Source of the DNA: an uncultured Collinsella sp. | Lineage (GTDB): Bacteria > Actinomycetota > Coriobacteriia > Coriobacteriales > Coriobacteriaceae | Length of the DNA: 64,000 nucleotides | Assembly (NCBI GenBank): GCA_958450865.1 | Contig: CAUDNY010000008.1 | Span: 56,748 to 120,747, forward strand | Reading direction: 5' to 3' | In this document: positions 7,975-64,000 of the stretch, in pieces | Numbering within the stretch: position 1 is the stretch's first letter | How the letters are laid out: each line of letters begins with the position of its first letter | The notes under the pieces: model-generated | What the model was told of the DNA's origin: nothing | Seen by the model: only the letters and a program-made list of their open reading frames with translations | Databases searched by the model: none | Made by a program: the position numbers and the translations under genes

Positions 7975-8002
7975 AATAGTGTTAGATGAGAAAGGACCGA
8001 AC

Positions 8003-11306: not shown

Positions 11307-12011
11307 ATGGCAATCAAGGTGTTCGCTGACGGTGCAAATCTCGAGGGCATGCTCGACATGTACGAGAACGGCAACGTTCAGGGTTTCACGACCAACCCGT
11401 CCCTTATGAAGAAGGGCGGCGTGACGGATTACCGCGCGTTTGCCAAAGAGGTCTTGACCCACATCACCGATGTATCCGTGTCGTTTGAGGTCTTTGCCGA
11501 CGACGTCGAGACCATGGAGGGCGAGGCGCGCGAGATCGCTACCTGGGCCGAGAACGTCTATGTCAAGATTCCGTGCGTGACTACCAAGGGCGAGTCCACC
11601 GCCGAGCTAGTCCGCAAGCTTTCGGCCGACGGCATCAAGGTCAACGTCACCACCATCTTTACGCCTGCGCAGGTCGACGAGATGGTCGAGGCCGTTGAAG
11701 CCGAGACGCCGTCAATCATCTCGCTCTTTGCCGGCCGCATCGCCGACACCGGCGTCGACCCCATTCCGTTTATGACGGAGTCGGTCAAGAAGGCCGCCGC
11801 CAAGCCCAACTGCGAGGTCCTGTGGGCGTCCACGCGTGAGCTTATCAATATTTACCAGGCGGAAGGATGCGGTTGCCAGATCATCACGGTGCCCAACAGC
11901 ATCCTGGCCAAGCGTAAGAACATCGGCCGTGACCCGTACGAGGTCTCGCTCGATACCGTGCGCGGTTTTGCCAAGGATATCGCCTCGCTCGGTTTCCATA
12001 TCCTGCCGTAA
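11307..12011 (+). CDS. transaldolase-family protein, paralog 2 (roughly four fifths identical to 8003-8713 by eye)
   Basis: MAIKVFADGANLEGMLDMYENGNVQGFTTNPSLMK. Colinear with paralog 1 over its whole length. Confidence 0.85.
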   Translation: MAIKVFADGANLEGMLDMYENGNVQGFTTNPSLMKKGGVTDYRAFAKEVLTHITDVSVSFEVFADDVETMEGEAREIATWAENVYVKIPCVTTKGESTAELVRKLSADGIKVNVTTIFTPAQVDEMVEAVEAETPSIISLFAGRIADTGVDPIPFMTESVKKAAAKPNCEVLWASTRELINIYQAEGCGCQIITVPNSILAKRKNIGRDPYEVSLDTVRGFAKDIASLGFHILP

Positions 12012-12042
12012 CGCGAACGCTGGCTACATCGCGGGTTGTTCG

Positions 12043-12112
12043 CCCCGGCCTTTCCTTTCCCTATCGCTCACGCGCTTCGCGAGGGTCGCGCTAGGCAAAG
12101 GAAAGGCCGGGG
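12043..12112. repeat. 16-bp-stem hairpin (ccccggcctttccttt ... aaaggaaaggccgggg), 38-nt loop
   Basis: Perfect inverted repeat read directly. Lies between the two copies of the 16-mer ttccatatcctgccgt (11994-12009, 12150-12165). Confidence 0.6.
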
Positions 12113-12170
12113 CTGCCGACACAAACTTGCCGGTAGGTTGGTGATTGGCTTCCATATCCTGCCGTTGACA

Positions 12171-12378
12171 AGGGTACCCCCTGCAGCGACGTGCAAAATC
12201 TCGAGTATTCAGCAAGGTAAAGGCTTTTACCATCTGGTTGAAGCACGGAACAGCCCCCGTTTTGGCTCTGATGATGCTAAAACGGGGGCTGTTTTTGACG
12301 TCATTGTCTCTGTGGGGCATCCGGAACGGTGGAATTTGCAGAATACTCGCGATTTTGCACGTCGCGAGAGGGGGGACC
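12171..12378. repeat. MITE-like unit bounded by about 40-bp imperfect terminal inverted repeats
   Basis: agggtaccccctgcagcgacgtgcaaaatctcgagtattc (12171-12210) against the reverse complement of gaatactcgcgattttgcacgtcgcgagaggggggaccct (12339-12378). Encloses the terminator hairpin at 12250-12296. Confidence 0.55.
12250..12296. terminator. bidirectional terminator (tal paralog 2 / tex)
   Basis: acagcccccgtttt - 15 nt - aaaacgggggctgt followed by TTTTT. Confidence 0.65.
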
Positions 12379-12391
12379 CTTGCTTGGCGGT

Positions 12392-14539: not shown

Positions 14540-14621
14540 GGGACTCCTTGCGTTTAAGGTGCGTTTGCAGCACAGGGCTACCAAGGATACCACCCGTCCC
14601 AAAAGGCTGTTTTGGGGCCGC

Positions 14622-14781
14622 GCCACGAAAACGGCCTATCTACTACGTTTTACCCGTAGGGGCTGACCATACCTGGGTTTTCCGAAAATCGACAAGCCGG
14701 TTACCTGCGGTTTTTATTTCGCGAAATTCGGCATGGTTGAGGGCGATCGGTTAAACGTAGTAGATAGGCACATTTCGTGGC
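14622..14781. repeat. inverted-repeat-bounded 160-bp element (family E, copy 1)
   Basis: 17-bp perfect arms gcctatctactacgttt / aaacgtagtagataggc, extendable to 29 bp. The core tacctgcggtttt...gaaattcggcatggt is homologous to 25332-25483 in reverse orientation. Confidence 0.6.
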
Positions 14782-14840
14782 GAACGAATCAAGCTAAGGT
14801 GCAAAAAGTCCCCCGTCCCAGAAAAATCATTGACAACGTA

Positions 14841-15991: not shown

Positions 15992-16021
15992 TTCGACTCC
16001 TTAATACTGGTGACCGGTGAA

Positions 16022-16052
16022 ATGCGACAAAGGGACAGTCCCTTTGCCGCAT
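16022..16052. repeat. GACAAAGGGAC palindrome, copy 1 (intra-operon, between the MFS stop and the oxidoreductase start)
   Basis: atgcgacaaagggacagtccctttgccgcat. Confidence 0.8.
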
Positions 16053-16060
16053 CGGTAAAA

Positions 16061-20649: not shown

Positions 20650-20766
20650 TGCGGCGCATTGTGTTTGGGTCGTTGAGATGAGTCGATTTGCCCCGAAAGA
20701 GGAGGGCATTGACCTTAGGGTCATGCCCGACGAATGAGCAGCAAATCGGCCATCTCGGCGGGCCGA
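20650..20766 (-). repeat. structured intergenic element, degenerate copy E (reverse orientation, lacks module 1)
   Basis: The reverse complement reads cccgccgagatggccgatttgc...gggcatgaccctaaggtcaatgccc...ggcaaatcgactcatctc. Same architecture as the copies at 25089, 42400 and 48406. Starts right after the stop of the minus-strand ABC gene. Confidence 0.45.
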
Positions 20767-20767: not shown

Positions 20768-22687
20768 CTACTCCAGCTCAAACGCTCCGGTATAGAGCTG
20801 GTAGTAATACCCGCGCTTGGCGATCAGCTCGTCGTGGTTGCCGCGCTCGATGATGCGGCCGTGGTCCAGGCAGATGATCGCGTCGGAGTTGCGCACGGTG
20901 GACAGGCGGTGCGCGATGACAAATGTCGTGCGGCCCTCCATGAGCTTGTCCATGCCGGCCTGCACGATAGCCTCGGTGCGGGTGTCAATGCTCGACGTGG
21001 CCTCGTCCAGAATCATTGCCGGCGGATCGGCGACGGCAGCGCGTGCGATTGAAATCAGCTGGCGCTGGCCCTGCGACAGCTGCGCGCCGTTGCCGGTGAG
21101 CATGGTGTCGTAGCCGTCGGGCAGGCGGGTGATAAAGTCGTCGGCGCCCGCGAGCTTGGCCGCCGCGATGCACTCCTCGTCGGTAGCGTCCAGGTTGCCG
21201 TAGCGGATGTTATCCATCACGGTGCCGGTGAACAGGTTCACGTCCTGCAGCACCACGCCCAGCGAGCGGCGCAGATCGGCCTTGCGGATCTTGTTGACGT
21301 TGATGCCGTCGTAGCGGATCTTGCCGTCGGCGATGTCATAGAAACGGTTGATGAGGTTGGTGATGGTCGTCTTACCGGCACCGGTGGCGCCGACAAACGC
21401 GACCTTCTGGCCCGGCTTGGCAAACACGGACACGCCGTGCAGCACCTCGTGGTCGGGCGTGTAGCCAAAGTCGACGTTGTCCATGACCAGGTCGCCACGC
21501 AGTGGCACGTACTCGACCTCGCCGGTTGCACGGTGCGGATGTTTCCACGCCCACATGCCGGTGTGGTGGTCGGCCTCCTCGAGCTGCCAGGTATCGGGGT
21601 TGACCTGCGCGTTGACGAGCGTCACATAGCCTTCGTCGGCTTCGGGCTCCTCGTCGATGAGCTCAAAGATACGGTCGGCGCCGGCGAGGCCCATGACCAC
21701 GGCGTTGATCTGCTGCGAGATCTGACCGATCTGTCCGCAGAACTGTTTGGTCATGTTGAGGAACGGCACCACGACGGCGATGGACAGCGCCATGCCCGAG
21801 ATGCTCAGGTTGGGCACGCCCAGTGCCAGGAAAATGCCGCCGGCAAGGGCCACCAGCACGTAGAGCAGGTTGCCCAGGTTCATAAGGATGGGCATGAGGA
21901 TGTTGGCGTACATGTTGGCCTTCTGCGAGACCTCGAAGAGCTTTTCGTTGCGCTCGTCAAAATCGGCCTCGGCGGCAGACTCGTGGCAGAATGCCTTGAC
22001 GACCTTCTGGCCGTTCATGACTTCCTCGATATGGCCCTCGACCACGCCGAGCTCGGTCTGCTGCGCAATGAAGAAGCGCGCGGAGTTGGAGCCGAGCAGC
22101 TTGGTCATAAAGGTCATAAAGGCGACGCCGGCCACAATGACCAGGCACATCCACACGCTGTAGTACAGCATGATAAAGAACACCGTGACGATGACGATAG
22201 TCGTCATGAGCAGGTTGGGCAGCGACTGGCTGATCATCTGGCGCAGCGTGTCGATGTCGTTGGTGTAGTGGCTCATGATGTCGCCGCGCTGGTGCGTGTC
22301 GAAGTAGCGAATCGGCAGGTCCTGCATGCGGTTGAACATCTTCTCGCGCAGCTTCTCGAGCGAGCCCTGCGTGACGATGGCCATGGCGCGGTTCCAGAAC
22401 AGCGAGGATAGGATGCCGACGCCGTAGATGCAGGCGAGGGTGGTCACGAGCTGTGCGATCTTGGGCTGTGCGGCTTCCCAATCGCCCGACTGCCACGATT
22501 CGCTAATAATCTGCAGGGCGCTCTGAAGGAAGGTCGCGCCGATGGAGTTGATGATGGCGCAGAGCACCACGCCGACGACGACGAGGGGCAAAAGCACGGG
22601 GTAGAAGCCAAAGAGCGTCTTGATGAGGCGCGACATGGTGCCGCCCTTGCGGTTGAGAGCGCGCTCGGCGGTCGTTGCCTTACTCAT
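20768..22687 (-). CDS. ABC exporter, fused permease/ATPase (heterodimer partner B)
   Basis: ATG at 22687 overlaps the upstream stop (ATGAGTAA). Walker A GATGAGKTT, signature LSQGQRQ, Walker B ILDEATS. Confidence 0.85.
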   Translation of the reverse strand: MSKATTAERALNRKGGTMSRLIKTLFGFYPVLLPLVVVGVVLCAIINSIGATFLQSALQIISESWQSGDWEAAQPKIAQLVTTLACIYGVGILSSLFWNRAMAIVTQGSLEKLREKMFNRMQDLPIRYFDTHQRGDIMSHYTNDIDTLRQMISQSLPNLLMTTIVIVTVFFIMLYYSVWMCLVIVAGVAFMTFMTKLLGSNSARFFIAQQTELGVVEGHIEEVMNGQKVVKAFCHESAAEADFDERNEKLFEVSQKANMYANILMPILMNLGNLLYVLVALAGGIFLALGVPNLSISGMALSIAVVVPFLNMTKQFCGQIGQISQQINAVVMGLAGADRIFELIDEEPEADEGYVTLVNAQVNPDTWQLEEADHHTGMWAWKHPHRATGEVEYVPLRGDLVMDNVDFGYTPDHEVLHGVSVFAKPGQKVAFVGATGAGKTTITNLINRFYDIADGKIRYDGINVNKIRKADLRRSLGVVLQDVNLFTGTVMDNIRYGNLDATDEECIAAAKLAGADDFITRLPDGYDTMLTGNGAQLSQGQRQLISIARAAVADPPAMILDEATSSIDTRTEAIVQAGMDKLMEGRTTFVIAHRLSTVRNSDAIICLDHGRIIERGNHDELIAKRGYYYQLYTGAFELE

Positions 22688-25088: not shown

Positions 25089-25262
25089 GGTTACGCGGTT
25101 TTACCAAACCGCGTAACGGCTCGACGCTGCAAACCCGCCAGAGCGGCAATCTGCCTTTCAGCTTCGGCGGCATGACCAGAAGGTCAATGCCGCCTCGTTT
25201 CAAGGCACCTTGCTCGCTCTGGCGGGTTTTCGCTGACTTCGCCAAAACATCGGCGTTGCCCT
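25089..25262 (+). repeat. structured intergenic element, copy A
   Basis: Hairpin ggttacgcgg-ttttaccaaa-ccgcgtaac, then cgacgctgcaaacccgccagagcggcaat, central hairpin ggcggcat-gaccagaaggtca-atgccgcc, closing cgctctggcggg, then gccaaaacatcggcgtt. Confidence 0.7.
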
Positions 25263-25270: not shown

Positions 25271-25326
25271 TAGTCGTTGGGGACGTTCTTGTTTGACTAG
25301 TCATTTAAGAACGTCCCCAACGACTA
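25271..25326. repeat. perfect 20-bp-arm palindrome (tagtcgttggggacgttctt ... aagaacgtccccaacgacta)
   Basis: Read directly; 16-nt spacer. One arm (acgttcccaatgacta) recurs at the 3' end of copy B (42612-42627). Confidence 0.85.
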
Positions 25327-25331
25327 ACTTA

Positions 25332-25483
25332 AAAACTATGCCGAATTACGGGGCTGAATGACGGATTGCCGACCATGCCGAAATTGGTAAAAAGAAAACC
25401 GCAGGTAGAAGGCTCGCTATGATTTGAAAATAAGGGGTGTGGTTGGCTCATTCAGGTTCAGCCCCGTAATTCGGCATAGTTTT
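25332..25483. repeat. inverted-repeat-bounded element (family E, copy 2)
   Basis: Arms aaaactatgccgaattacggggctgaatga / tcattcag(gttcag)ccccgtaattcggcatagtttt. The core is homologous to 14622-14781 in reverse orientation. Confidence 0.6.
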
Positions 25484-25665
25484 GAAATGGCACTGAATAA
25501 GTGGCGGCAAATGAGCCGCAATGAAGCAAGCTAGCCCCTCGTTTCCGAAACCTTTCCGCAACAATTTGCCCTTCGTGCCGCTCGACTCCGCTCGCAACGT
25601 CCCCTGCGCTACACTTAGTCGCACTGTGGCGCTGCTGCGCCGCGCCCGAACCAAGGGAGACCCTC

Positions 25666-26490
25666 ATGAAGAACACTCAGCTGCTGCTGATCAACGATAT
25701 GTGCGGCTACGGCAAGGTCGCACTTTCCGCCATGCTGCCGGTGCTGTCGCACATGGGCTACCGTATCCATAATCTGCCGACGGCGCTCGTTTCCGACACG
25801 CTCAACTACCCCAAGTTCTACATCCACGACACCACCGAGTACGTGCGCCAAAGCCTCGCCATCTGGGAGGAGCTCGGCTTTGAGTTCGACGCTATCTCGA
25901 CCGGATTTATCGTGACCGAGGAAGAGACGCGCATCATCTCGGACTTTTGCCACCGCCGTGCGCAAAAGGGCACCAAGGTGTTCGTCGACCCCATCATGGG
26001 CGACAACGGCAAGCTCTATGCGGGCGTGCCCGAGTCCACGATTGGCCTTATGCGGCATCTGCTGGAGTGCGCAGACTACGCGGTACCCAACTATACCGAG
26101 GCATGCCTGCTCACCGATACGCCTATCGCCGAGCAAATCACGCCCGACGAGGCTCGCGTCCTTGTGGACGCCGTGCGTGAGCTGGGTGCCAAGTCGGTGG
26201 TCATTACGAGCGCCGTAGTCAATGGCACGAACGCGGTTATCGGTTACGACCATGTGGCGGGGGAGTACTTTACGATTCCCTTTGAGCTCATTCCGGTCTA
26301 CTTCCCGGGTACGGGCGACACGTTCTCGGCGGTGCTCGTCGGCCGCGTTATGGCAGGTTGGAGTCTGCAGCGCGCGACGTCCGATGCCATGCGTGTGGTG
26401 GCTGAGCTTATCGAGCGCAATGCCGACCAAGAGGACAAGTCGGCTGGCCTTCCCATCGAGGCCTGCCTGGATGTGATCGACCATGAGTAA
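25666..26490 (+). CDS. pdxK: pyridoxal/pyridoxine/pyridoxamine kinase (PdxK/PdxY ribokinase-fold family)
   Basis: LLINDMCGYGKVALSAMLPVLSHMG N-terminus and PGTGDTFSA anion-hole motif. Confidence 0.8.
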   Translation: MKNTQLLLINDMCGYGKVALSAMLPVLSHMGYRIHNLPTALVSDTLNYPKFYIHDTTEYVRQSLAIWEELGFEFDAISTGFIVTEEETRIISDFCHRRAQKGTKVFVDPIMGDNGKLYAGVPESTIGLMRHLLECADYAVPNYTEACLLTDTPIAEQITPDEARVLVDAVRELGAKSVVITSAVVNGTNAVIGYDHVAGEYFTIPFELIPVYFPGTGDTFSAVLVGRVMAGWSLQRATSDAMRVVAELIERNADQEDKSAGLPIEACLDVIDHE

Positions 26491-26812
26491 TGCTGGCGAG
26501 GGCGGCGTCAAGCCTGCGGGCGAGAACAAGCCGCTCGGCGCGCCGCGGGGCAAGCGTCCGCGCATCCGCGTGAGCTGCGTGGACCAGCTGGGTGTGTGCC
26601 GCTGCCACCATGGTCACAAGCCGGGCGACGTTTTTGACTTTGACCGAGACCGCGGCAAGATGTGCGCCATGGCCTGCCACGTGGGCTTTCCCTATATCGA
26701 TATCCTGCGCTATGGCGGAACCGTGCCTGGCAACGAGCCCGGCACGGCAAAGTTCTGCTGCCCCGAGGTTGATACGCTGAACGTCTGGCTTGCCGAGATT
26801 GTCGACGAGTAG
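26483..26812 (+). CDS. small Cys/His-rich protein, TIGR04076-type
   Basis: CRCHHGHKPGDVFDF...KMCAMACHVGFPYIDILRYGG...KFCCPE pattern. ATG overlaps the pdxK stop (ATGAGTAA). Confidence 0.6.
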   Translation: MSNAGEGGVKPAGENKPLGAPRGKRPRIRVSCVDQLGVCRCHHGHKPGDVFDFDRDRGKMCAMACHVGFPYIDILRYGGTVPGNEPGTAKFCCPEVDTLNVWLAEIVDE

Positions 26813-26813: not shown

Positions 26814-26937
26814 CGAGCGTGGATTTTCTCCCACCGAGATAATGAGCGTGGATTTTCTCCCGTTTAGGGCGCACTTGAACGCTCAAAGTGGGAGATTTTC
26901 CACGCTCGTTTTTCATGTGGGAGATTATCCACGCTCG
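26814..26937. repeat. four copies of a 19-mer: two direct (26814-26832, 26844-26861) and two inverted (26890-26908, 26919-26937)
   Basis: cgagcgtggattttctccc twice, then gggagatt(t/a)tccacgctcg twice, at 29-30 bp spacing. The inner pair is followed by GTTTTTC. Confidence 0.85.
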
Positions 26938-26973: not shown

Positions 26974-27420
26974 CTACAGCTGCTCGAGCATGGACGTGCA
27001 GCCGGCGAGTACGTCGCGGTACGTGGCATCGAAATTGCCGGTGTACCAGGGATCGGCCACGTCGCCGGGACACTCGGTCCAATCGAGCATGCGCGTAATC
27101 TTGCCGTCGGGGTCGTCGCCAAAGATGCGACGCAGGCCCCGCGCGTTCTCAGCATCCATATAGACAATGTGATCCCAGTCGCCATACTCCGCGCGACGCA
27201 CCTGGCGGGCACGGTGCGCAACGACGGGAATCCCGACTTCGCGCAGCTTGGCGACCGTGCCATGATGCGGCGGGTTGCCAATCTCCTCAGTTGAAGTCGC
27301 CGCGGAATCGATGACAAATTCGCCCGCGCGCCCGGCGCGCCGCACCAGCTCGGTAAACACCGACTCAGCCATCGTCGAGCGGCAGATATTCCCATGGCAG
27401 ATAAACAGTACACGTTGCAT
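26974..27420 (-). CDS. low-molecular-weight protein-tyrosine phosphatase
   Basis: MQRVLFICHGNICRSTMAE contains the CX5R(S/T) P-loop. DPWY contains the general-acid Asp. Confidence 0.85.
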   Translation of the reverse strand: MQRVLFICHGNICRSTMAESVFTELVRRAGRAGEFVIDSAATSTEEIGNPPHHGTVAKLREVGIPVVAHRARQVRRAEYGDWDHIVYMDAENARGLRRIFGDDPDGKITRMLDWTECPGDVADPWYTGNFDATYRDVLAGCTSMLEQL

Positions 27421-27480
27421 AGAACGATACCTTTCATATAGAAGGCTGCTAAAGAGTCGAAGCCGGGCGCATGCCAAGTT

Positions 27481-32988: not shown

Positions 32989-33037
32989 TCCAATGTCGCA
33001 TGAATAAGCGGGATTCAATCCCTGCAACTCTAACAGA

Positions 33038-33068
33038 ATGTGACAAAGGAGCAGTCTCTTTGTCACAT
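33038..33068. repeat. GACAAAGGGAC palindrome, copy 2 (variant; in a divergent promoter region)
   Basis: atgtgacaaaggagcagtctctttgtcacat. Confidence 0.8.
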
Positions 33069-33075
33069 GAAGACC

Positions 33076-33106
33076 TTGCCTGTATAGTCGCAATACAGGC
33101 GAAGAT
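33076..33106 (+). promoter_or_regulatory. putative MerR-type promoter/operator P1: TTGCCT - 19 bp - GAAGAT with dyad CCTGTAT-N7-ATACAGG
   Basis: Read directly. 23 of 31 positions are identical to 34216-34246. Lies 35 nt upstream of the lpdD-idi ATG. Confidence 0.45.
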
Positions 33107-38111: not shown

Positions 38112-38981
38112 ATGCAGATGGGCATGTATGCGATTAGCGAGATGGCGAGCTTGTTTAACGTTTCGCGCCAAACGCTCATCTACTACGACAAGATCGGCCT
38201 GTTTAAGCCCGCCGTGGTTAACGAAAAAGGCTACCGTTTCTATTCGCCCACGCAGATCCCGCTCATGCGTCTGATCTGCATGCTGCGCGACCTGGGGCTC
38301 GAACTCGACGAGATCGACCGTCTGACCTCGACGTTCGACATTGGCGAGATGACCGATCACCTGCGCTCACGGGTGCAGGCGCTCGACGAGCAGATTGCCG
38401 GGCTCAAAGCCGAGCGTGCGAGCGTGCAGGAGCGTCTGAGCTTTTACGACGAGGCAGTTTACTGGCGCGAGCGGGAGGGCAAGCCGGAGCTCAAGCAGTT
38501 TGAGCGTCGCTACGTGGTCTTTGAGGAGTTTCCGGGCGATATCGAGCGTGGCCGCTCGATGCTGCACCCCACGCTCATGCGGGCGATTCTGCGCATGCGT
38601 ACGCTGACGGGCACGCGTCCCATGCGCGGCTGGGGCGCCATGCTGCGTCGCGAGGCGCTGCATTCCGACGACCCCATCGCCGGCGCCGGCTCCTTTGCCG
38701 TGCTGCCGCGCGGTGCCGAGGAGTTGCTGCCGAGCGACGCTGCCGAGCTGGCAGAGATCGGCATCGAAGTGCTGCCCGAGGGCACATACCTGTGCATGAG
38801 CCGCTGGGGCATGCCGTACGAGCCCGAAGGCATCCGCGCCATCGTGGCCTGCATGGACGAGCACGCGCTCCAGCCCGTTGGCAACGCCTTCGACTTTTGC
38901 TACCTCGATACCACGAGCTACGACGAGTCCCACCAAGAGGACTTCTGCTGCATCCAAATCCCCGTCGCCCTCCAGATGTGA
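38112..38981 (+). CDS. MerR-family regulator with C-terminal GyrI-like effector-binding domain
   Basis: GGAGG before the ATG. HTH YAISEMASLFNVSRQTLIYYDKIGLFKP...GYRFYSPTQIPLMRLICMLRDLGLELDEI, a coiled coil, then an effector domain of about 170 aa. Confidence 0.8.
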   Translation: MQMGMYAISEMASLFNVSRQTLIYYDKIGLFKPAVVNEKGYRFYSPTQIPLMRLICMLRDLGLELDEIDRLTSTFDIGEMTDHLRSRVQALDEQIAGLKAERASVQERLSFYDEAVYWREREGKPELKQFERRYVVFEEFPGDIERGRSMLHPTLMRAILRMRTLTGTRPMRGWGAMLRREALHSDDPIAGAGSFAVLPRGAEELLPSDAAELAEIGIEVLPEGTYLCMSRWGMPYEPEGIRAIVACMDEHALQPVGNAFDFCYLDTTSYDESHQEDFCCIQIPVALQM

Positions 38982-39006
38982 CAAAGGGACAGTCCCTTTG
39001 TCACAT
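38976..39006. repeat. GACAAAGGGAC palindrome, copy 4 (consensus; supplies the merR ATG-TGA end)
   Basis: atgtgacaaagggacagtccctttgtcacat; 13-bp perfect arms. Confidence 0.9.
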
Positions 39007-39018
39007 CCACGCCCATTT

Positions 39019-40447: not shown

Positions 40448-40480
40448 AATGTGACAAAGGGACAGCCCCTTTGTCACATT
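40448..40480. repeat. GACAAAGGGAC palindrome, copy 5
   Basis: aatgtgacaaagggacagcccctttgtcacatt. Confidence 0.9.
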
Positions 40481-40555
40481 CCATGCGAGCTCCCGTGTCA
40501 TCTGGGGGTATAAGGCTAGCAAGTGTTTATTTGCGAGGCCAAGGGGGCGCCCCGT

Positions 40556-41504: not shown

Positions 41505-42398
41505 ATGTCCACCGTCACTACCATCAAGCGCGGCGGCCTCACCGCGGCCATCGATTCCATGGGCGCCCAGCTCACGAGCCTTGCCCTTAACGGCAACGAG
41601 TATCTGTGGCAGGGCGACCCGGCCTTTTGGGGCAAGCACGCGCCCATCCTGTTCCCCATCGTGGGATCGCTGCGCAACAACACGGCGACGTCTGCGGCCG
41701 GCACCTGCGAGATGGCTCGCCACGGCATCGCGCGTATCGTGGAGCACAAGATCGTCGAGGTGTCGGAGGACGGCTCCTCGGTAACGTACGAGATCACCGA
41801 CACGCCCGAGTCGCTCAAGGCGTTCCCGTTCCACTTTAAGCTCAACATGACCTATGCCCTGACTGGTGACGCCACGCTTACCCAGACCTTTGCCGTCACC
41901 AATACCGGCGACGTGGACCTGCCGTTCTCGGTGGGCGGCCACCCCGCATTTAACGTGCCCGCCCCCGGTGCCGAGGACGAGGCGTTCGAGGATTACGAGC
42001 TGGCGTTTACCGAGGCTTGGACCAACGAGGCCCCCATCATCACGCCCGATGGCCTTATGACGTTCGAGGGTAGCTACAAGGCTCCCGATAACTCGGACGT
42101 GCTGCCCATCACGCACCGCAGCTTCGATAACGACGCCATCATGTTCACCGATACCCCGGGCTCCACGCTCACGCTGCGCGGTCGCAAGTCGGGCCACGGC
42201 GTCAAGATCGACTTTGAGGGCTTTAAGTACATCGGCGTGTGGTCTGCCGCCAACGACGCCCCGTTTGTGGCGCTCGAGCCCTGGACTGGTCACACCACCA
42301 TGGACACCGAGGACGACGTCTTTGAGCACAAGGTCAACACCATTACGCTGGCGCCGGGCGCTACCGACACCCGTTCCTTTAGCGTCACCCTGCTCTAG
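41505..42398 (+). CDS. aldose 1-epimerase-family protein (YihR/LacX-like)
   Basis: GGAGG before the ATG. GAQLTSLALNGNEYLWQGDPAFWGKHAPILFPIVG and GGHPAFN motifs. Confidence 0.8.
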   Translation: MSTVTTIKRGGLTAAIDSMGAQLTSLALNGNEYLWQGDPAFWGKHAPILFPIVGSLRNNTATSAAGTCEMARHGIARIVEHKIVEVSEDGSSVTYEITDTPESLKAFPFHFKLNMTYALTGDATLTQTFAVTNTGDVDLPFSVGGHPAFNVPAPGAEDEAFEDYELAFTEAWTNEAPIITPDGLMTFEGSYKAPDNSDVLPITHRSFDNDAIMFTDTPGSTLTLRGRKSGHGVKIDFEGFKYIGVWSAANDAPFVALEPWTGHTTMDTEDDVFEHKVNTITLAPGATDTRSFSVTLL

Positions 42399-42399
42399 A

Positions 42400-42629
42400 G
42401 GTTCCACCGTTCTGACGAACGGCGGGCCGGTCGACGCTGCGCCCTTAGGTTCCGCCGTTCTGACGAACGGCGGGCCGGTCGACGCTGCGCGCCACCCAGA
42501 GCGACAATTTGTCATTCAAAAGGCACGGCATGACCAGAAGGTCTATGCCGTGCCTTTTTCATGCCAACTTGTTCGCTCTGGGCGGCGCTCGCTGGCATTG
42601 CCAAAACATCGACGTTCCCAATGACTACC
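42400..42629 (+). repeat. structured intergenic element, copy B (module 1 tandemly duplicated)
   Basis: ggttcc(a/g)ccgttctgacgaacggcgggccggtcgacgctgcgc occurs twice (42400-42444, 42448-42492). Then cccagagcgacaa, the terminator-like hairpin aaaaggcacggcat-13 nt-atgccgtgccttttt (42518-42559), ttgttcgctctggg, and gccaaaacatcgacgtt. Confidence 0.85.
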
Positions 42630-42726
42630 GCGTGTCTATTAATTTTTCGAGCTTGTGCTGCGCTACTGGTCGCTGGCGTATATCCTGTTAAGTCGTCAGC
42701 ATACAATTCAACAGGGAAGGCAGATT

Positions 42727-43653
42727 ATGCATTCTCCCCATCAACGCGACGCGCATCCACAGCTGGTGTGCAGCCGTCGCATCTTCTTGGGTAGCGCTCT
42801 CGCTGCGAGCGCTACCGTTGTCGCCGGCGCACTTTCCGGTTGCCAGCGCCCCTCCACGCTGGAAGTAGTTCAGCCCACGACGGGCGGCGGTCGCGACGAC
42901 CTGTCCGATTCTGTGATCGGCAAGGATAAGATCCGCATTGGCATGGAGGCGGCCTACGCCCCGTACAACTGGCAGGTTTCCGAGGCCAGCGAGTTCACGA
43001 TCCCCATCGACAACGTGCAGGGCGCCTATGCCGATGGCTACGACGTGCAGATCGCCAAGATCGTCTGCAAGGCTCTCGGCGGCGAGCCCGTTGCCGTCAA
43101 GCAGAGCTTCTCGGGCCTTATCGACTCGCTCAACAACGGCCAGATTGACCTCATCATCGCCGGCATGAGCGCCACGCCCGAGCGCGAGGAGTCCGTCGGC
43201 TTTTCCGACCCGTACTTCATTGGCTACTTTGGCCTGTTCGTAAAAGAGGGCTCGCCCTACCAAAACGCCACCAAGCTCAGCGACTTCAGCGGTGCCACGG
43301 TGCTCGGCCAAAAGGACACCATGCTCGATACCGTCATCGACGAGATTCCGGGCGTTGTGCACAAGAACCCGGTCGATTCGGTCCCCACGGTGTTCTCGAA
43401 TCTGCTGCAGGGCACGTGCGACGCCGTGACCTACAACACGGAGAACGAAAAGGGCTATATGGCCCAAAATCCCGGTATCGTCCCCATCCACTTTGCCGAG
43501 GGCGAGGGCTTTAAGCAGGAGGTCACGGCAAATGTCGGTTGCCGCAAGGGCTCGGACAAACTGCTTAAGCTCATCGACAAGACACTCAAGGGCATTAGCC
43601 AAGAGGAGCGCGACCAAATGTGGGACGCGTGCCTCGACCGTCAGCCGGCATAG
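42727..43653 (+). CDS. amino-acid ABC transporter substrate-binding lipoprotein
   Basis: Signal peptide with lipobox LSGC. SBP_bac_3-like body (IRIGMEAAYAPYNW..., DLIIAGMSATPERE). Confidence 0.85.
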   Translation: MHSPHQRDAHPQLVCSRRIFLGSALAASATVVAGALSGCQRPSTLEVVQPTTGGGRDDLSDSVIGKDKIRIGMEAAYAPYNWQVSEASEFTIPIDNVQGAYADGYDVQIAKIVCKALGGEPVAVKQSFSGLIDSLNNGQIDLIIAGMSATPEREESVGFSDPYFIGYFGLFVKEGSPYQNATKLSDFSGATVLGQKDTMLDTVIDEIPGVVHKNPVDSVPTVFSNLLQGTCDAVTYNTENEKGYMAQNPGIVPIHFAEGEGFKQEVTANVGCRKGSDKLLKLIDKTLKGISQEERDQMWDACLDRQPA

Positions 43654-43662
43654 GGAGGCAGC

Positions 43663-44811
43663 ATGAAAGGCATCAATCGTCTGGCCTCCTTTATCAAGGC
43701 CGACCACCGTTATGTGTACCTGGGCACGAGCGTTATCGCGGCGCTCGGCTTGGCATTTAGCCAGCGCAACCCCACGCCGCTGAGCTTTTTGGCGCCCACC
43801 GGCATCTTCCAAGATTGCCTTTGGGCGATTCTTTGGGCCTGGATCGTCGTGTCGGCGGCAGCGCTCGTCACCAAGGTTATGCACTGGAGCGACTATCGCG
43901 AAACGTCGCCGTTTGCATCCGAGCGTTTCCGTCGCGGCGCGCGCCTGGGCAGCTATGTCGTGGTCGTCATCGCGGCGATCTTCTTTGTCGACCGCTGCGT
44001 CATGTCGTTTATCGACCTGGTGCAGGTGAGTATTGTCTCGGACTCCAACCCCAGCGACTTTTTGTCGAGCCTGGTCTACATGACCTACAAGAGCGGGGAC
44101 TTCTTTATCCGCGGCATCGAGATCACCATCGCGCTTGCCACCTTCGGCACGGTCATCGCCTTCTTCTTGGCGCTGCTCTTTGTGTTCTTGCGCACCCAGA
44201 CCTTCGATCGCGTCGACAACGACCTGGTGCGCTTCTTTAAGAGTGTCGGCCGCGGCTTTGCGACCATCTACTCCACCATCGTGCGTGGCACGCCCATGAT
44301 GGTCCAGGGCCTACTCATCTATTACGCGGGCTTCACCGTTTTGCGCGGCATGGGCTTCGAGACCGCCCAGGCCAACCAGATCTGGAGTACCTTCACTGCC
44401 GGCCTCGTCACCATCTCGCTCAACTCCACCGCCTACATGATGGAGGTCCTGCGCGGCGGCATCGAGTCCATCGACCCCGGTCAGGCCGAGGCGGCGCGCT
44501 CGCTGGGTCTGTCGCAGTGGCAGGCTATGCGCAAGGTCGTGTTCCCCCAGGGTATTAAAAACGCGATCCCCGCGCTCACCAACGAGCTCATCATCAACAT
44601 CAAGGACTCGTCGGTGCTTTCGGTTATCGGCGTGTTCGACCTTATGTACGCTACTACCACGGTCGCCGGCGTGTACTACCGCCAGATGGAGGTCTACTGC
44701 GTGGCGCTCGTGGTCTACCTGATCCTGACGCTCGTGGCGAGCCGCCTGCTCGAGGCCTTTGGCAAAAAGCTCGGCGCCGAGGCTCCTGCCACGCTGCCCA
44801 GCTCTAACTAG
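43663..44811 (+). CDS. amino-acid ABC transporter permease with N-terminal membrane extension of about 150 aa
   Basis: C-terminal HisM/GlnP-type core with the EAA loop ([21 protein letters not shown]). Confidence 0.85.
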
Positions 44812-44833
44812 GCTTAAGACGAGGAGAATCATC

Positions 44834-45619
44834 ATGGCAGATACCGCCATTACCGGCGTTGCGGCCGCCGCACAGACCAATGAGCCGCTCATCCGCGTCG
44901 AGGGCCTGCGCAAGAGCTTTGGTTCGCTCGAGGTGCTCAAGGGCATCGACCTGTCCGTCAATCCCGGTGAGGTTGTCACCATCATCGGCGCCTCGGGCTC
45001 GGGCAAATCGACCTTCCTGCGCTGCCTCAACCTGCTCGAGACCCCGGACGCGGGCCACATCTGGTTCCACGGCCAGGACCTCACGGCCGAGCGCTGCAAC
45101 ATCAACAAATTGCGCGAGGACATCGGCATGGTGTTCCAGGGCTTTAACCTGTTCAACAACATGGATGTGCTCGACAACTGCACGCTCGCGCCCGTCACGC
45201 TTAAAAAGATGAGCAAGGCCGAGGCCGAGAAGGTCGCGATGGAGCATCTGACGAGCGTGGGACTCGAAAAGTTCGCGCACGCCGCCGTTGGTCGCCTGTC
45301 CGGTGGTCAAAAACAGCGCGTGGCCATCGCTCGTGCCCTATGTATGAATCCGCAGATCATGCTGTTCGACGAGCCGACCTCAGCGCTCGACCCCGAGATC
45401 GTGGGCGAGGTGCTCGAGGTCATGCGCAAGCTCGCCGCCGACGGCATGACCATGGTCGTCGTCACGCATGAGATGGCCTTTGCCCGAACCGTGTCCGACC
45501 GCGTGGTCTTTATGGACAAGGGCGTGGTGCTCGAGGATGCCGCGCCGGCCGAGCTCTTCGGCAACCCCAAACACCAGCGCACTCGTGAGTTCCTCTCTCG
45601 CTATCTCGAGGACAAATAA
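44834..45619 (+). CDS. amino-acid ABC transporter ATP-binding protein
   Basis: Walker [10 protein letters not shown], signature LSGGQKQR, Walker [12 protein letters not shown]. Confidence 0.9.
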
Positions 45620-45642
45620 CCGACCGCAAACGCTTACGTTGC

Positions 45643-45670
45643 AGGGCCGCTCCCGTGGGGCGGCCTTTGT
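45643..45670 (+). terminator. weak hairpin after the ABC importer operon
   Basis: agggccgc - 9 nt - gcggcctt then TG. Confidence 0.4.
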
Positions 45671-45691
45671 CGTCACAATCGAAAGGATGTC

Positions 45692-47107
45692 ATGGCCGAG
45701 GTTTGGCGCTTCTTTGCGCATGAGGACGATTTTGCCGATATAGACGAGGTCGGCGCGTGCGAGCGCTTGGGCCGCGTGCTGTCGTTTCCGACCATTTCGA
45801 GCATGGATGCCGAGGCGGTGGACTGGCAGCCCTTCGACGACCTGCGCGCGTATATGCAGCAGGCCTGGCCGCACGTATTTGCGGCGGGCGAGGTCGAGCT
45901 TGTCGGCCATTCGCTGTTGGTGACGCTTGGCGGTTCCGACTCCGCCCTCAAACCCGTCATGCTCATGGGCCACATGGACGTGGTCCCCGTGGTGCCGGGT
46001 ACCGAGGCCGACTGGACGCACGCCCCCTTTAGCGGACAGGTGGACGACACCTACATTTGGGGTCGCGGCGCTATCGACATGAAGGATCAGGTCGCAGGCA
46101 TTCTCGAGGCGGTTGAGTATGCGTTGGCGCACGGTTGGGAGCACAAGCGTTCGCTGTTGCTCGCCTTTGGCCAGGACGAGGAAACCACGCAGTACGGCGC
46201 TGGAGCTATCGGCCGCGTGCTCGAGGAGCGCGGTGTTGAGCTCGAGTTCCTGATCGACGAGGGTGACTACCGTATCGTTTCGGCTGCCGAGTACGGCGTG
46301 GGCGAGGGCTGGCTTATGCATGCCGACCTGGCCGAAAAGGGCTATGCCGATATCGTGCTCAAGACGAAGAGCGCGGGCGGGCATTCGTCTAACCCCTACG
46401 GCGGCACGTCGCTCGAGGTGCTCAGCCGTGCCATCGCCGCAATCTGCGATATCGAGTGGCCGACGCGCGTGACCGATCTGCTTGCCGCGCAGCTTGTCGA
46501 GCTGGGGCTCTACACGGCGGATGAGATTGCCGCCAACGGGGATGCCATCGTGCGCGAGTGCCTCGCCAGCAAAAAGCTCTATCCGCTGGTGACGACCACC
46601 TGCGCGCCCACGCAGATCGAGGGAGGCAGCGCCGGCGCCAACGTAATGCCGCAGGATATGTGGGCCAACATTAACTTCCGCATGCTCGAGGGCACGAGCG
46701 TGGCCGACGTTGTGGCGCGCTGCCGTGAGGCGGTTGCCGGGGCGGACCTTGCCGGTCGTGTCGAAGTGGAGCTGGGCCCCGGCAGCTCCGAGCCCTCGCC
46801 GTCCCCGCGCATCGGTGGTCCCGGCCTCGAGGCGGTTCGCTCCATCGCCGCCCGCTATTTCCGCGATCCAAAGGGGACGGAGGAAAACGGATCATCCGAG
46901 CCGTTGGCGATTGTCCCCTCGACCGTGATCGGCGCGACCGACGCTGCCAACTACCAGCACATTTGCTCCGAATGCATTCGTTTTTCGGCGTTTGTGGTCG
47001 ACGATGACGAGTGCGACCGCGGCGTCCACGGCACCAACGAGCGCATCACCCGCCGCGCCTACCTCCAGGGTGTCCGCTTCCTCATCGCCCTGCTCCATAC
47101 GCTCTAG
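45692..47107 (+). CDS. M20-family metallopeptidase (carboxypeptidase/dipeptidase-like)
   Basis: MGHMDVVP, GRGAIDMKD and FGQDEE metal-ligand motifs. Confidence 0.8.
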   Translation: MAEVWRFFAHEDDFADIDEVGACERLGRVLSFPTISSMDAEAVDWQPFDDLRAYMQQAWPHVFAAGEVELVGHSLLVTLGGSDSALKPVMLMGHMDVVPVVPGTEADWTHAPFSGQVDDTYIWGRGAIDMKDQVAGILEAVEYALAHGWEHKRSLLLAFGQDEETTQYGAGAIGRVLEERGVELEFLIDEGDYRIVSAAEYGVGEGWLMHADLAEKGYADIVLKTKSAGGHSSNPYGGTSLEVLSRAIAAICDIEWPTRVTDLLAAQLVELGLYTADEIAANGDAIVRECLASKKLYPLVTTTCAPTQIEGGSAGANVMPQDMWANINFRMLEGTSVADVVARCREAVAGADLAGRVEVELGPGSSEPSPSPRIGGPGLEAVRSIAARYFRDPKGTEENGSSEPLAIVPSTVIGATDAANYQHICSECIRFSAFVVDDDECDRGVHGTNERITRRAYLQGVRFLIALLHTL

Positions 47108-47141
47108 AATCCGACAAAGGGACTCTCCCTTTGTCGGATTC
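47107..47141. repeat. GACAAAGGGAC palindrome, copy 6 (variant outer arms)
   Basis: gaatccgacaaagggactctccctttgtcggattc. Confidence 0.85.
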
Positions 47142-47336
47142 CGTGCGGGTTATATGCAGGTTTGCCTGCGCACGCTATCATGTATGGGTTAGACCGCAAC
47201 TATGTACCCCGTACGCGAAGGGATGCGCATGTATCTGAAGATCGACATGCTCTAGCTGGACTTACCCCCGCAATGGCGCCGTGCGCCCCATCAATTCTGC
47301 CGATTTTCACCTTCACGCATATAAAGGAGTCCCGTC

Positions 47337-48404
47337 ATGCGCGACAAGCTCGAAAAGATCATCAAGGCCTACGAGGAGCTCGAGAAAAAGCTTTCCGACC
47401 CGGCCGTCGCCTCCGATATCAAGGAGTTCACGCGTCTCAACAAGGAGTACGCGCACCAGTCCGACCTCATCGCTGCCTCGCGCGAGTACATCGGCGCGCT
47501 CGATGACATCGAGGCCGCCAAGGAAATGCTCCACGATACTACCGATGCCGATGAGAAGGAGATGCTCCAGATGGACATCTCCGAAAACGAGGCCAAGCTT
47601 CCCCAGCTCGAGGAAGACATTAAGTACATGCTCATCCCGAGCGACCCCAACGACGACAAGAACACCATCGTCGAGATTCGCTCCGCCGCTGGTGGCGACG
47701 AGGCGGCCATCTTTGCCGGCGATCTGTACAAGATGTATCAGCGCTTCTGCGAGTCGCGCGGCTGGAAGACCACCGTGCTCGACTCCAGCCCCAGCGAGGC
47801 CGGCGGCTTTAAGTCCATCGAGTTCAAGGTCGAGGGCGACCGCGTCTACTCCGTCATGAAGTTCGAGTCCGGCGTGCACCGCGTCCAGCGCGTTCCCAAG
47901 ACCGAGTCCCAGGGCCGTATCCAGACCTCCACGGCGACCGTCGCCGTACTTCCCGAGGCCGAGGAGATCGACGTCCAGATCAACCAGTCCGACCTGCGTA
48001 TCGACACCTACTGCGCCTCCGGTCCTGGCGGTCAGTGCGTTAACACCACTTATTCCGCCGTGCGCATCACCCACCTGCCCACCAACACCGTGGTGCAGTC
48101 GCAGGAACAGCGCTCCCAGATCCAGAACCGCGAAGTCTGCATGCAGATGCTGCGCGCCCGTCTGTACGAGATGGAGCTCGAGAAGCAGCAGGCAGAGCTC
48201 GGTGCCGAGCGCCAGAGCCAGATCGGCCACGGTAACCGTTCCGAGAAGATCCGTACCTACAACCAGCCCCAGGACCGCGTGACCGATCACCGCATCGGCT
48301 TCAACTCCACCTACAACGGCGTCCTTCTGGGCGACCAGCTCGGCACCGTCATCGAGGCACTCGCCGCCGCCGAGCGAGCCGAGAAGCTGGCACAGGCAGT
48401 CTAA
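47337..48404 (+). CDS. prfA: peptide chain release factor 1
   Basis: PxT-type recognition region plus the SGPGGQCVNTTYSAVRITHLPT GGQ motif. Confidence 0.95.
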   Translation: MRDKLEKIIKAYEELEKKLSDPAVASDIKEFTRLNKEYAHQSDLIAASREYIGALDDIEAAKEMLHDTTDADEKEMLQMDISENEAKLPQLEEDIKYMLIPSDPNDDKNTIVEIRSAAGGDEAAIFAGDLYKMYQRFCESRGWKTTVLDSSPSEAGGFKSIEFKVEGDRVYSVMKFESGVHRVQRVPKTESQGRIQTSTATVAVLPEAEEIDVQINQSDLRIDTYCASGPGGQCVNTTYSAVRITHLPTNTVVQSQEQRSQIQNREVCMQMLRARLYEMELEKQQAELGAERQSQIGHGNRSEKIRTYNQPQDRVTDHRIGFNSTYNGVLLGDQLGTVIEALAAAERAEKLAQAV

Positions 48405-48405
48405 G

Positions 48406-48585
48406 TTCCGCCGTTCTACCGAACGGCGGACCAGCCGACGCTGCGCGCCGTCCAGAGCGACAATTTGTCATTCAAAAGGCAAGGCATGACCAGAAGGTCT
48501 ATGCCTTGCCTTTTTCATGCCAACTTGTTCGCTCTGGACGTCGCTCGCTGACATTGCCAAATCATTGGCGTTTCCTTGGTTGTCA
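48406..48585 (+). repeat. structured intergenic element, copy C
   Basis: About nine tenths identical to copy B by eye. Central hairpin aaaaggcaaggcat-13 nt-atgccttgccttttt (48475-48516). Starts 2 nt after the prfA stop. Confidence 0.85.
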
Positions 48586-62708: not shown

Positions 62709-63944
62709 ATGTTTAATAAAAAGCCCCTCGCGGATACCACCACCCGAAGACCCTCAACTGGTGCGCAGGCCAAGATCTACAGTCGCGATAACGTGGCTCG
62801 CTATTCCGAGCGAGCTCGCCAACGTCGTCGTAGCCACACGATTCGTCACGTCGCGCTCATTGTCGTGCTTGGCGTGCTGCTGAGTGCCACTACCGCTGCC
62901 GGCCTGTGGTTTGCCACCATTATGGGCAAGCTCGGCGATTCTAATGTCATTACCGACAATCTGCGTCGGGTTCTGGTTGACACCGATGAGGCAAAGGATC
63001 CGTTCTACGTGCTGCTTCTTGGCACCGACGGCCGTCCGGGCGAGGATACGTATCGTGCCGACTCGATTATCCTGGCACGCATCGACCCCACGCAAAAGCA
63101 GGCGACGCTCATTTCCGTTCCGCGCGACACCAAGGTCGAGTACAAGGGCGAGACCATGAAGATCAACGCCTGCCATACCGTTGGCGGCGCCGAGGCCATG
63201 GTCGAGGCGGTCAACGAGCTGTGCGGTGTTCAGATTTCCCACTATGCCGAGGTCAGCTTCGACGGTATGCAGGCGCTGATTGATTCGGTTGGCGGTATCG
63301 ACATTAACGCAACCGATGATGTTGACGACCCCGAGCACCTGGATATTAAGATTACCGCTGGCCAGCAGCATATGGACGGTGCCACCGCCCTTACCTATGC
63401 CCGCTGCCGCTACACCTATGCCGACGGCGATTACACGCGCATGCGCCACCAGCGTCAGGTGCTTGGCGCCCTTGCCAACCAGATTCTCAATAACTTCGAT
63501 GCCACGAAGATCTTTGGCCTGGTTAATTCGCTGTCCGATATGCTCGTAACCGATATGAGCGTTCAGGATATCGTGGCTACGGTCAATGCCATGCGCGGTA
63601 TGGATGTCGACGGAATCTACTCGGCCAACCTGCCCTCGTACGCCGACGACAGCACCATGATCGACGGTGTGAGCTACGTCTTTGTCTACGAGGACGAGCT
63701 CAAGGAAATGATGGAGCGCGTCGATGCCGGCAAGGATCCCAAGGGTCCCAACACCATGGGTCTTTCCGACGGTTCCAGCTCTACGATCGGCGACCTGAAC
63801 AACAACACGTCTGACGACTACGCAAACGGTACCGCAACCTCATCGGTCAGCTCTGACGATTCCGATGACTCAAGCGATTCGAGCGATTCGGACTACTACG
63901 AAGAGCCCACCGGCGACGGCAACGGCTACGAAGCCAATTATTAG
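62709..63944 (+). CDS. LCP-family (LytR/CpsA/Psr) cell-envelope phosphotransferase with acidic Ser/Asp-rich C-tail
   Basis: N-terminal TM anchor. FYVLLLGTDGRPGEDTYRADSIILARIDP and ISVPRDT motifs. Confidence 0.85.
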   Translation: MFNKKPLADTTTRRPSTGAQAKIYSRDNVARYSERARQRRRSHTIRHVALIVVLGVLLSATTAAGLWFATIMGKLGDSNVITDNLRRVLVDTDEAKDPFYVLLLGTDGRPGEDTYRADSIILARIDPTQKQATLISVPRDTKVEYKGETMKINACHTVGGAEAMVEAVNELCGVQISHYAEVSFDGMQALIDSVGGIDINATDDVDDPEHLDIKITAGQQHMDGATALTYARCRYTYADGDYTRMRHQRQVLGALANQILNNFDATKIFGLVNSLSDMLVTDMSVQDIVATVNAMRGMDVDGIYSANLPSYADDSTMIDGVSYVFVYEDELKEMMERVDAGKDPKGPNTMGLSDGSSSTIGDLNNNTSDDYANGTATSSVSSDDSDDSSDSSDSDYYEEPTGDGNGYEANY

Positions 63945-64000
63945 GGTTACGCGGGCTTACCAGCCCGCGTAACCAGTTGACGCTGCAAACCCGCCAGAGC
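63945..64000 (+). repeat. structured intergenic element, copy D (A-type; truncated by the window end)
   Basis: gggttacgcgggcttaccagcccgcgtaaccagttgacgctgcaaacccgccagagc begins right after the LCP stop codon. Matches copy A module for module. Confidence 0.75.

Follow-up and report, generated by a model that had tools for sequence, protein, structure and literature searches.

A family of mosaic palindromic repeats in Collinsella that begins directly past stop codons and carries a terminator-like core

The stretch analysed here, 64,000 nt from an uncultured Collinsella sp. (contig CAUDNY010000008.1, positions 56,748–120,747 of assembly GCA_958450865.1; hereafter the window), carries five copies, A to E, of a structured intergenic element. 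We regard this element, with moderate confidence, as a Collinsella-specific mosaic palindromic intergenic repeat built of exchangeable modules—a 3′-end cassette that is inserted past stop codons. The element is dispersed to many loci, its left end is anchored at stop codons, its stems are paired, and its modules are exchanged; that it acts as a terminator or a 3′-end hairpin is probable, to judge from its sequence features. The initial annotation of the window had listed a 3′-UTR-derived small RNA (sRNA), a terminator or stabiliser module, a protein-binding RNA, and a long hairpin resembling a MITE (a miniature transposable element with inverted repeats) as possible identities, and our analysis narrows this broad list down to a dispersed mosaic repeat whose core resembles a terminator.

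An alignment of 110 distinct copies defines a modular element of ~170–180 nt, with arms of ~50 nt, comprising a 5′ hairpin (H1), a core, and a tail. The module order proposed earlier is borne out: the 5′ hairpin is followed by CGACGCTGC, a long hairpin with the apical sequence GACCAGAAGGTC, the closing CGCTCTGG, and then GCCAAAACAT..GCGTT. H1 is a 12-bp hairpin formed by a 28-nt palindrome, GTTNCGSSGTTY-TACC-RAACSSCGNAAC, which occurs in at least five stem variants and is optional, being absent from two site groups. A linker of 5–6 nt separates it from the nearly invariant GACGCTGC. The core is an imperfect hairpin of ~105 nt, whose outer and middle stems vary freely around a nearly invariant apex, CATGACC-NNAA-GGTC(A/T)ATG, and whose internal mismatches (UUCAA opposite UUUCA, and CAAUYUG) are conserved. 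The junction CTCGCTG comes after the core hairpin, and the element ends in one of several alternative tails (GCCAAAACATCGGCGTTGCC; TCCGTCCTCTACCTGCGGCGTTGCC; ACKTWTGCTCAACCTGCGGYG; CATATGACCCAATCC...), next to which a separate small hairpin repeat (TAGTCRTTGGGGACGTTCTT...) is often found. Short forms, such as copy E, consist of the long hairpin alone, with the same apex set in an unrelated yet complementary outer stem; 5′ modules also occur solo and in tandem, and some copies (L164, L061, and L078) are truncated on the 3′ side. An attenuator-like alternative, in which the tail's CGGCGTT would pair with H1 through the 3′ arm of the latter, seems unlikely, as H1 type and tail type show no co-variation apparent by eye.

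Clustering of the copies by upstream flank yielded 32 independent sites, at 29 of which the nearest upstream gene is co-oriented with the element. At 26 of the 32, a count that includes two sites with an intervening tandem extra 5′ module, the left end falls within −1 to +8 nt of this co-oriented gene's stop codon. The right end is not anchored: it lies 26–360 nt from the stop codon of a convergent gene, the downstream gene being co-directional in 16 sites and convergent in 13. RefSeq annotation (Prokaryotic Genome Annotation Pipeline, PGAP) places two further copies 2–4 nt past lysS and an SDR gene, on the same strand. Within the window, four of the five copies (B, C, D, and E) follow the stop codon of a co-oriented gene, matching the four of five noted earlier, with copy A as the exception.

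The apex of the core adds a directional feature. Directly 3′ of the apical stem, a T-rich tract (at least 5 T in 9 nt) is present in 65 of the 110 copies, and at the mirror position on the 5′ side a tract of at least 5 A is present in none of them (0/110). With the T-tract confined to that strand, the apex appears terminator-like along the direction of the upstream gene. The core type of copies B and C, a 14-bp stem followed by UUUUU, is the sole type that looks bidirectional. The terminator option of the initial annotation gains from both the terminator-like apical part and the location of the elements at gene 3′ ends.

Hairpins next to stop codons are a wider habit of Collinsella genomes. 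At 348 gene ends with a real intergenic spacer, non-H1 hairpins of at least 9 bp number 32 starting 0–8 nt past the stop codon, 12 starting at 9–20 nt, and 60 starting at 21–45 nt; the window itself contains several unique hairpins, and a second palindrome family, that likewise start 0–8 nt past stop codons. Two roles for the stop codon itself were tried and rejected. A stop codon supplied by the element had been suggested by the lack of TGA, which window genes rarely use anyway (about 1 in 50 of those in the correct frame, with TAG and TAA used about equally), and both the release factor 1 (RF1) gene prfA and the gene at the L012/L022 site end at their own native stop codons. A recoding signal, whether for read-through or as a SECIS- or PYLIS-like hairpin, is not compatible with a stop-to-hairpin spacing that ranges from −1 to +8 nt, since the reading frame is then not kept; TAG and TAA also both occur. 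Because GC skew tracks gene orientation, a replication-strand bias is inseparable from gene strand within the window. As a separate observation, the gene strand changes from mostly minus to mostly plus near 24–28 kb, where the GC skew also flips, the sense strand being C-rich.

Exchange of modules is documented at the prfA site. A metagenome scan with the RF1 protein retrieved 80 contigs in which RF1 is 99–100% identical; among those that extend at least 230 nt beyond prfA, all 62 carry the element directly after this gene, its H1, core, apex, and tail types combining in at least 30 ways, and 18 of the 80 contigs end 13–109 nt past the stop codon, that is, inside the repeat. Among prfA pairs at 99–99.8% nucleotide identity, the modules differ in five of seven; the replaced patch extends from the stop codon to approximately +300, between flanks that are near-identical. 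Heterogeneity within a site is also found in genome assemblies, including isolates and a complete chromosome, and some other sites are homogeneous. The heterogeneity in isolate and complete genomes weakens assembly chimerism as the sole cause of the reassortment.

Insertion is illustrated by an orthologous site at which L022, L036, and L103 carry the element and L012 does not. In the filled state, a block of ~285 nt has its first base right after the stop codon, with no target duplication, while a native canonical terminator ~40 nt downstream is kept in both the empty and the filled states. The three filled copies already differ in their H1 variant. At the empty site there is no pre-existing hairpin at the stop codon, which points mildly to target choice over selection as the cause of the anchoring. 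A flank-pairing screen of 114 copies for empty sites returned L012 alone; the Collinsella record in PLSDB, in which empty sites were also sought, does not contain the region of the window, and the right ends of non-orthologous copies share no common flanking motif. Two metagenome contigs (L124:2530-3010, and L144) join copy B's left half to the small hairpin repeat that lies upstream of prfA, and both lack the ~5-kb amino-acid ABC-transporter operon of window positions 42655–47107, an indel bounded by repeats.

The complementarity of the stems is maintained. Copies A, B, and C fold into structures far more stable than those of shuffled sequence (z −7.7 to −11.7), and RNAalifold recovers 39 pairs, 24 of them with two-sided compensatory changes. 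When H1 is included, 94.7% of 5155 pair cells across the distinct copies are standard pairs; column shuffling gives 80.8%, with 0/500 shuffles reaching the observed value, and sliding the partner by 1–3 columns gives at most 41.7%. Changes on both sides affect 29 of 47 pairs. The compensatory pairs read earlier between B and C, and the different but complementary stems of E, are all seen.

This covariation is not specific to the sense strand. G:U cells (82) show no excess over A:C cells (107), the core read as reverse-complement RNA folds better by a mean of 6.9 kcal/mol (in 98 of 110 copies), and the apical loop is physically inverted in two copies, L111 and L112 (CATAGACCTTCTGGTCATG), a flip that implies an event at the level of DNA. 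In view of these three features, a DNA-level palindrome is the best reading of the long hairpin; selection on a sense-strand RNA left no signal in wobble pairs or in a strand-specific folding test. The data fit a DNA palindrome whose arms are kept matched by DNA-hairpin selection or by arm-to-arm and copy-to-copy conversion. Of the selected RNA structure envisaged by the initial annotation, the maintained hairpin family with its heavy covariation stands, but the covariation does not show it to be a sense-strand RNA; nothing points to a discrete trans-acting sRNA. The MITE-like option, on the other hand, fits the filled and empty site, the module exchange, the loop inversion, and the truncations.

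In the window, all five copies lie at the positions first given for them, with D clipped by the window end and E degenerate, and every quoted sequence detail holds. An nhmmer profile built from A, B, and C recovered, over the 64 kb, only the five copies and an extra 5′ module of B. The apical 22-mer, with at most 3 mismatches, matched four times in the window (A, B, C, and E), where shuffling gives an expectation of 0. A covariance model trained on 28 diverse copies and run over the whole window with filters off scored A at 132.8, B at 129.1, C at 127.7, and E at 72.1 bits, with no other match, and tells the strands apart (~130 bits sense versus 36–50 bits antisense). A direct-repeat scan pairs B with C (174 nt, 90% identical) and A with D (56 nt, 86%), and also links A, B, and C through their 3′ parts; the A/D and B/C subfamilies distinguished earlier are both visible in the copies.

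Copy B (42447..42620, + strand) comprises H1 (42449–42475), the core hairpin (42478–42599), and the tail (42600–42620). Its apical terminator-like hairpin (42518..42559, +) has a stem of AAAAGGCACGGCAT and ATGCCGTGCC(UUUU) with GACC-AGAA-GGTC inside, and is followed by TTTTT at 42555–42559. The extra tandem 5′ module (42399..42446, +; H1 42401–42427, GACGCTGC 42433–42440) precedes it; this 48-nt module is 98% identical to 42447–42490 and begins 2 nt past the TAG stop codon (42396–42398) of an aldose-epimerase-like gene. Copy C (48405..48575, +; H1 48405–48431, core 48434–48555, tail 48556–48575) lies between prfA and prmC, its first base being the base after the TAA stop codon (48402–48404) of prfA. 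Copy D (63945..64000, +), of which the window end leaves 56 nt (H1 63945–63974, GACGCTGC 63979–63986), likewise starts at the base after a stop codon, the TAG (63942–63944) of a LytR-family gene, and its orthologues in other genomes (the L044/L025/L043/L077 group) are full-length elements. Copy E is the short form (20675..20756, − strand; E-value 3.9e-15). It has no H1, no GACGCTGC, and no tail, begins 12 nt past the TAG stop codon (20768–20770) of an ABC-transporter gene, and surrounds the conserved apical module with an outer stem unrelated in sequence (GAGATG..CGATTTGC / GCAAATCG..CATCTC). Copy A (25089..25262, +; H1 25090–25117, core 25120–25240, tail 25241–25262) does not follow a gene and sits between a divergent MarR-family gene and a pyridoxal-kinase-like gene.

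Copy A lies in a cluster of three different repeats. Directly 3′ of it, as of many other Collinsella copies, is a small hairpin repeat, TAGTCGTTGGGGACGTTCTT...AAGAACGTCCCCAACGACTA (25282–25335 in the window), which also occurs in L007, L012, L014, L026, and L165:4278-4312, and which in L122 and L135 forms a ~56-nt insertion, relative to the window, inside the palindrome upstream of prfA. The third small repeat family is represented by ~160-nt elements at 14621–14782 and 25329–25486, each with its own inverted repeats of 30–34 nt at the borders; the two share an internal core (ACCATGCCGAAWTT ... AAAACCGCAGGTA) in opposite orientation.

The taxonomic range of the element appears narrow. A scan of GTDB with the apical motif, using one genome per species, gave at least 120 matching stretches, and among the matches listed all belong to Collinsella or unnamed Coriobacteriaceae. 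One match was obtained in 2.9 million viral contigs, the apical motif was not found in phage genomes, and the sole match in PLSDB is a 900-kb C. aerofaciens record, with the motif in 8 places. This record, NZ_OY725717.1 (L202, L203, and L204), bears the label 'plasmid 6' of C. aerofaciens TSDC17.2-1.1, and among its genes are recA, ftsK, der, scpAB, lysS, and tgt; the presence of recA, ftsK, and lysS indicates a chromosome segment mislabelled as a plasmid. On these viral, phage, and PLSDB scans, a phage or plasmid origin is rejected. Copy density varies, from 5 in 64 kb here to 8 in 900 kb of that other strain.

The initial annotation could name no matching Rfam family, and database searches agree: Rfam 15, which includes Collinsella-1 (RF01700), gave 0 hits in the window at gathering score. 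Over 143 kb from 18 Collinsella loci with copies, tRNAs alone matched, and searches in E-value mode returned only generic miRNA-hairpin models, far under their thresholds. Full-text literature searches found no account of such a Collinsella repeat, and the family is apparently previously undescribed.

In the mechanism that we favour, a new copy would be inserted immediately 3′ of a stop codon, and the target would not be duplicated. The long palindrome would be kept at the DNA level, as the inverted arms of a small non-autonomous element and not as a sense-strand RNA; the loop flip, the truncations, the mosaicism, and the outer palindrome would all be DNA-level traits of such an element. Ectopic gene conversion may then keep the element homogeneous or reshuffle and rewrite its modules. 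The transcript of the upstream gene would enter H1 and then the GC-rich apical hairpin and the U-rich tract behind it, which together would form the 3′-end cassette, a putative intrinsic terminator and/or protective 3′ hairpin ~90–100 nt past the stop codon. Such a role would explain the retained orientation and the stop-adjacent position, and also why any module variant seems acceptable at a site.

Several points weigh against this mechanism. No transposase or recombinase is tied to the element, either in the window or among the genes beside copies. The U-tract is weak and interrupted in the A and P core types (e.g., CUCGUUUC); copy C stands between prfA and prmC, genes that are often co-transcribed, and copy A is not at a 3′ end. 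At the L022 site, the element is not needed for termination, the canonical terminator still being present downstream, and, with one filled/empty pair taken between species, the insertion junction is not firmly defined. Assembly chimerism could account for part of the reassortment in short-read metagenome contigs. Should the apical T-tract end transcription, the RNA would never include the outer stem's 3′ arm, leaving the conserved outer stem without an RNA role. Finally, a simple terminator does not explain the conserved pyrimidine mismatches or the invariant GACC-N4-GGTC apex, which as sequence features suggest a protein partner.

It is conceivable, if unlikely, that the element is a purely selfish miniature transposable element without host function, its hairpin representing terminal inverted repeats and its position and orientation resulting from transposase target choice together with purifying selection that removes harmful insertions. 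The spread over at least 32 unrelated sites, the filled and empty site, the missing strand-specific wobble signal, the loop inversion, the truncations, the association with an indel boundary, and the variation of copy density between strains would all be expected of such an element. However, a target-site duplication is lacking (weak evidence, as it comes from the single between-species filled/empty pair), and neither a transposase-bearing parent nor split arms with cargo were found in ~1.3 Mb of Collinsella DNA; a 3.7-kb gap in L084, considered as a parent element, proved to be a sugar operon (sugar isomerase-like protein, PTS EIIC, and DeoR regulator). The occupancy of 62/62 contigs after prfA suggests retention, the asymmetry of the T-tract agrees with the direction of the upstream gene, and selection against harm could hardly by itself produce so extreme an anchoring, at stop codons, of just one end.

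Two related ideas invoke a dedicated recombinase. In the first, which we consider improbable, the element would be a homing, cassette-exchanging 3′-end system, in which a Collinsella recombinase inserts a single-stranded DNA (ssDNA) hairpin precisely at the base after the stop codon and swaps H1, core, and tail modules at GACGCTGC and CTCGCTG. Were this true, host terminators would be mobile, interchangeable parts, and the invariant GACC-N4-GGTC apex and conserved mismatches would be protein recognition features. The second, to which we give still less credence, sees in the element an ssDNA hairpin recombination site for an HUH/Y1 transposase (REP/RAYT-like) or a tyrosine recombinase (attC-like), with junctions at the same two motifs. 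It draws on the duplication-free insertion directly 3′ of TA(G/A), the fixed orientation, the mismatches conserved within a freely covarying stem (compare the extrahelical bases of attC), the coincidence of module borders with invariant short motifs, and the invariance of the apical palindrome. Yet the window and the surroundings of the copies hold no recombinase, the neighbours being housekeeping genes whose synteny is conserved; the element lacks the motifs that define attC and the GTAG/CGTC REPs; and homologous gene conversion among dispersed copies accounts for the exchange without a special enzyme. Least probable of all is a functional sense-strand RNA, a 3′-UTR-derived small RNA or protein-binding RNA with the whole long hairpin active, for the very stable fold, the strong covariation, the invariant apical loop region, and the co-transcription with upstream genes implied by position are set against G:U cells no more frequent than A:C cells, an antisense strand that folds better, variants that swap freely at one locus, a tolerated loop inversion, a mid-element T-tract that would cut the RNA before the 3′ arm, and the lack of an Rfam relative.

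Among known systems, the closest analogue in behaviour is TRIT (Tuberculosis Rho-independent terminator motif) of Mycobacterium, a set of 147 sequence-conserved, mostly palindromic hairpins that occupy a very narrow range of positions around stop codons, are limited to Mycobacterium, and are suspected of having a dedicated binding factor (PMC3152330). The two share their occurrence in Actinomycetota, many copies, conservation of both sequence and structure, palindromic form, a narrow position relative to the stop codon, and restriction to a genus. They differ in that TRIT is a single short hairpin of unrelated sequence centred ~8 nt inside the coding sequence, whereas the Collinsella element is 170–180 nt long and modular, starts just past the stop codon, and reassorts its modules. 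Neither is known to terminate transcription in its host.

REP and BIME sequences are short palindromes, mostly downstream of coding regions and probably transcribed, for which termination and mRNA stabilisation have been proposed; their mosaics and dimers can form long hairpins, they are thought to be non-autonomous mobile DNA, and a survey of GTAG/CGTC-tagged REPs reported no such families in Actinobacteria (PMC3733652). Our element resembles them as a short palindromic repeat downstream of genes, with a mosaic arrangement and long hairpins. It differs from the GTAG/CGTC REPs, which bear the tag at the foot of a 20–40 nt palindrome: the foot of H1 has no tag, and CGTC is found on the opposite strand, 5–6 nt from H1 and within GACGCTGC. 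The genes flanking the window copies include no RAYT (an IS200/IS605-type Y1 transposase) or other transposase, and no RAYT is linked to the element. In E. coli, REPs within ~15 nt of the stop codon reportedly affect translation of the upstream gene, a result attributed to Liang, Rudd and Deutscher in 2015.

Bacterial MITE-type intergenic repeats are among the subjects of a review (PMC3184786). Like MITEs, the Collinsella element is small, non-coding, and multi-copy, has inverted arms, and is present or absent at an orthologous site; the target-site duplication is missing, as judged from one between-species pair. The neisserial dRS3/RS, Correia, and ERIC repeats are ~100–200 bp and non-coding, with inverted arms that fold as RNA, mosaics, and presence/absence polymorphism, and our element is like these and MITEs in size, lack of coding capacity, inverted arms, mosaicism, and polymorphism. 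In all these families the terminal inverted repeats are defined, the target (TA or another) is duplicated, and the distance from genes varies; in the Collinsella element, by contrast, no duplication is seen, one end lies at stop codons, and the apex is terminator-like.

Integron attC sites are imperfect palindromes of 60–140 nt that follow the stop codon of an open reading frame (ORF) in fixed orientation, with structure conserved over sequence and with conserved unpaired bases. The Collinsella element is likewise an imperfect palindrome directly past the stop codon, fixed in orientation, variable in sequence, and conserved in structure. The core sites of attC, however, run from RYYYAAC first to GTTRRRY last, whereas our element has GTTNCGS first and SCGNAAC second (GTTACGC ... 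GCGTAAC), the reverse order. There are also no cassette arrays and no integrase nearby, the copies standing kilobases apart after prfA, lysS, and an ABC transporter.

A structured non-coding motif, Collinsella-1 (RF01700), has been described from Collinsella aerofaciens and human gut metagenomes (PMC2864571). It resembles our element in being a structured motif from Collinsella, but its model gave no hit on copy B (E ≤10), on three loci (E ≤1), or on the window and 18 loci (gathering score). The element is thus a new dispersed palindromic intergenic repeat with a terminator-like core, of the REP/BIME/NIME/TRIT kind and outside any named family.

Collinsella, a genus of the human gut, is abundant and very diverse, and to our knowledge almost no molecular genetics exists for it. 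As the repeat marks many Collinsella gene 3′ ends, a model of it would improve the annotation of transcript units and terminators. The repeat breaks short-read assemblies, and it coincides with indel boundaries and so probably shapes genome rearrangement; since its modules vary among genomes with ~99% identical prfA, it could serve as a typing marker. Alongside TRIT, it gives the actinobacteria a second set of hairpins that are conserved in sequence and anchored at stop codons, and a second test system for the idea, which it supports, that some Actinomycetota form 3′ ends by repeated, possibly factor-bound hairpins.

The window contains further repeats. A second hairpin family, ATGTGACAAAGGGAC-NNN-GTCCCTTTGTCACAT, is a perfect palindrome of 14–15 bp with five window copies (16021–16060, 33037–33076, 38975–39014, 40448–40487, and 47108–47147), three of which lie 0–7 nt past, or overlap, stop codons (genes ending at 38981, 40441, and 47107); it is probably another reusable hairpin of the terminator type. 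At 26814–26937, the 20-mer GAGCGTGGAWWWTCTCCCAC, with a DnaA-box-like core TTATCCAC, is present in four copies (two direct and two inverted) between the convergent genes 26483–26812 (+) and 26974–27477 (−), with no dnaA or dnaN nearby. Lastly, the paralogous genes 7946–8713 and 11283–12011, ~3.3 kb apart, share 71–79% DNA identity (matching segments 8003–8302/11307–11606 and 8636–8703/11940–12007), and the convergent spacer after the second of them contains inverted repeats at 12042–12113 and 12169–12382, with 26-nt arms that are 92% complementary and 47-nt arms that are 87% complementary and 120 nt apart.

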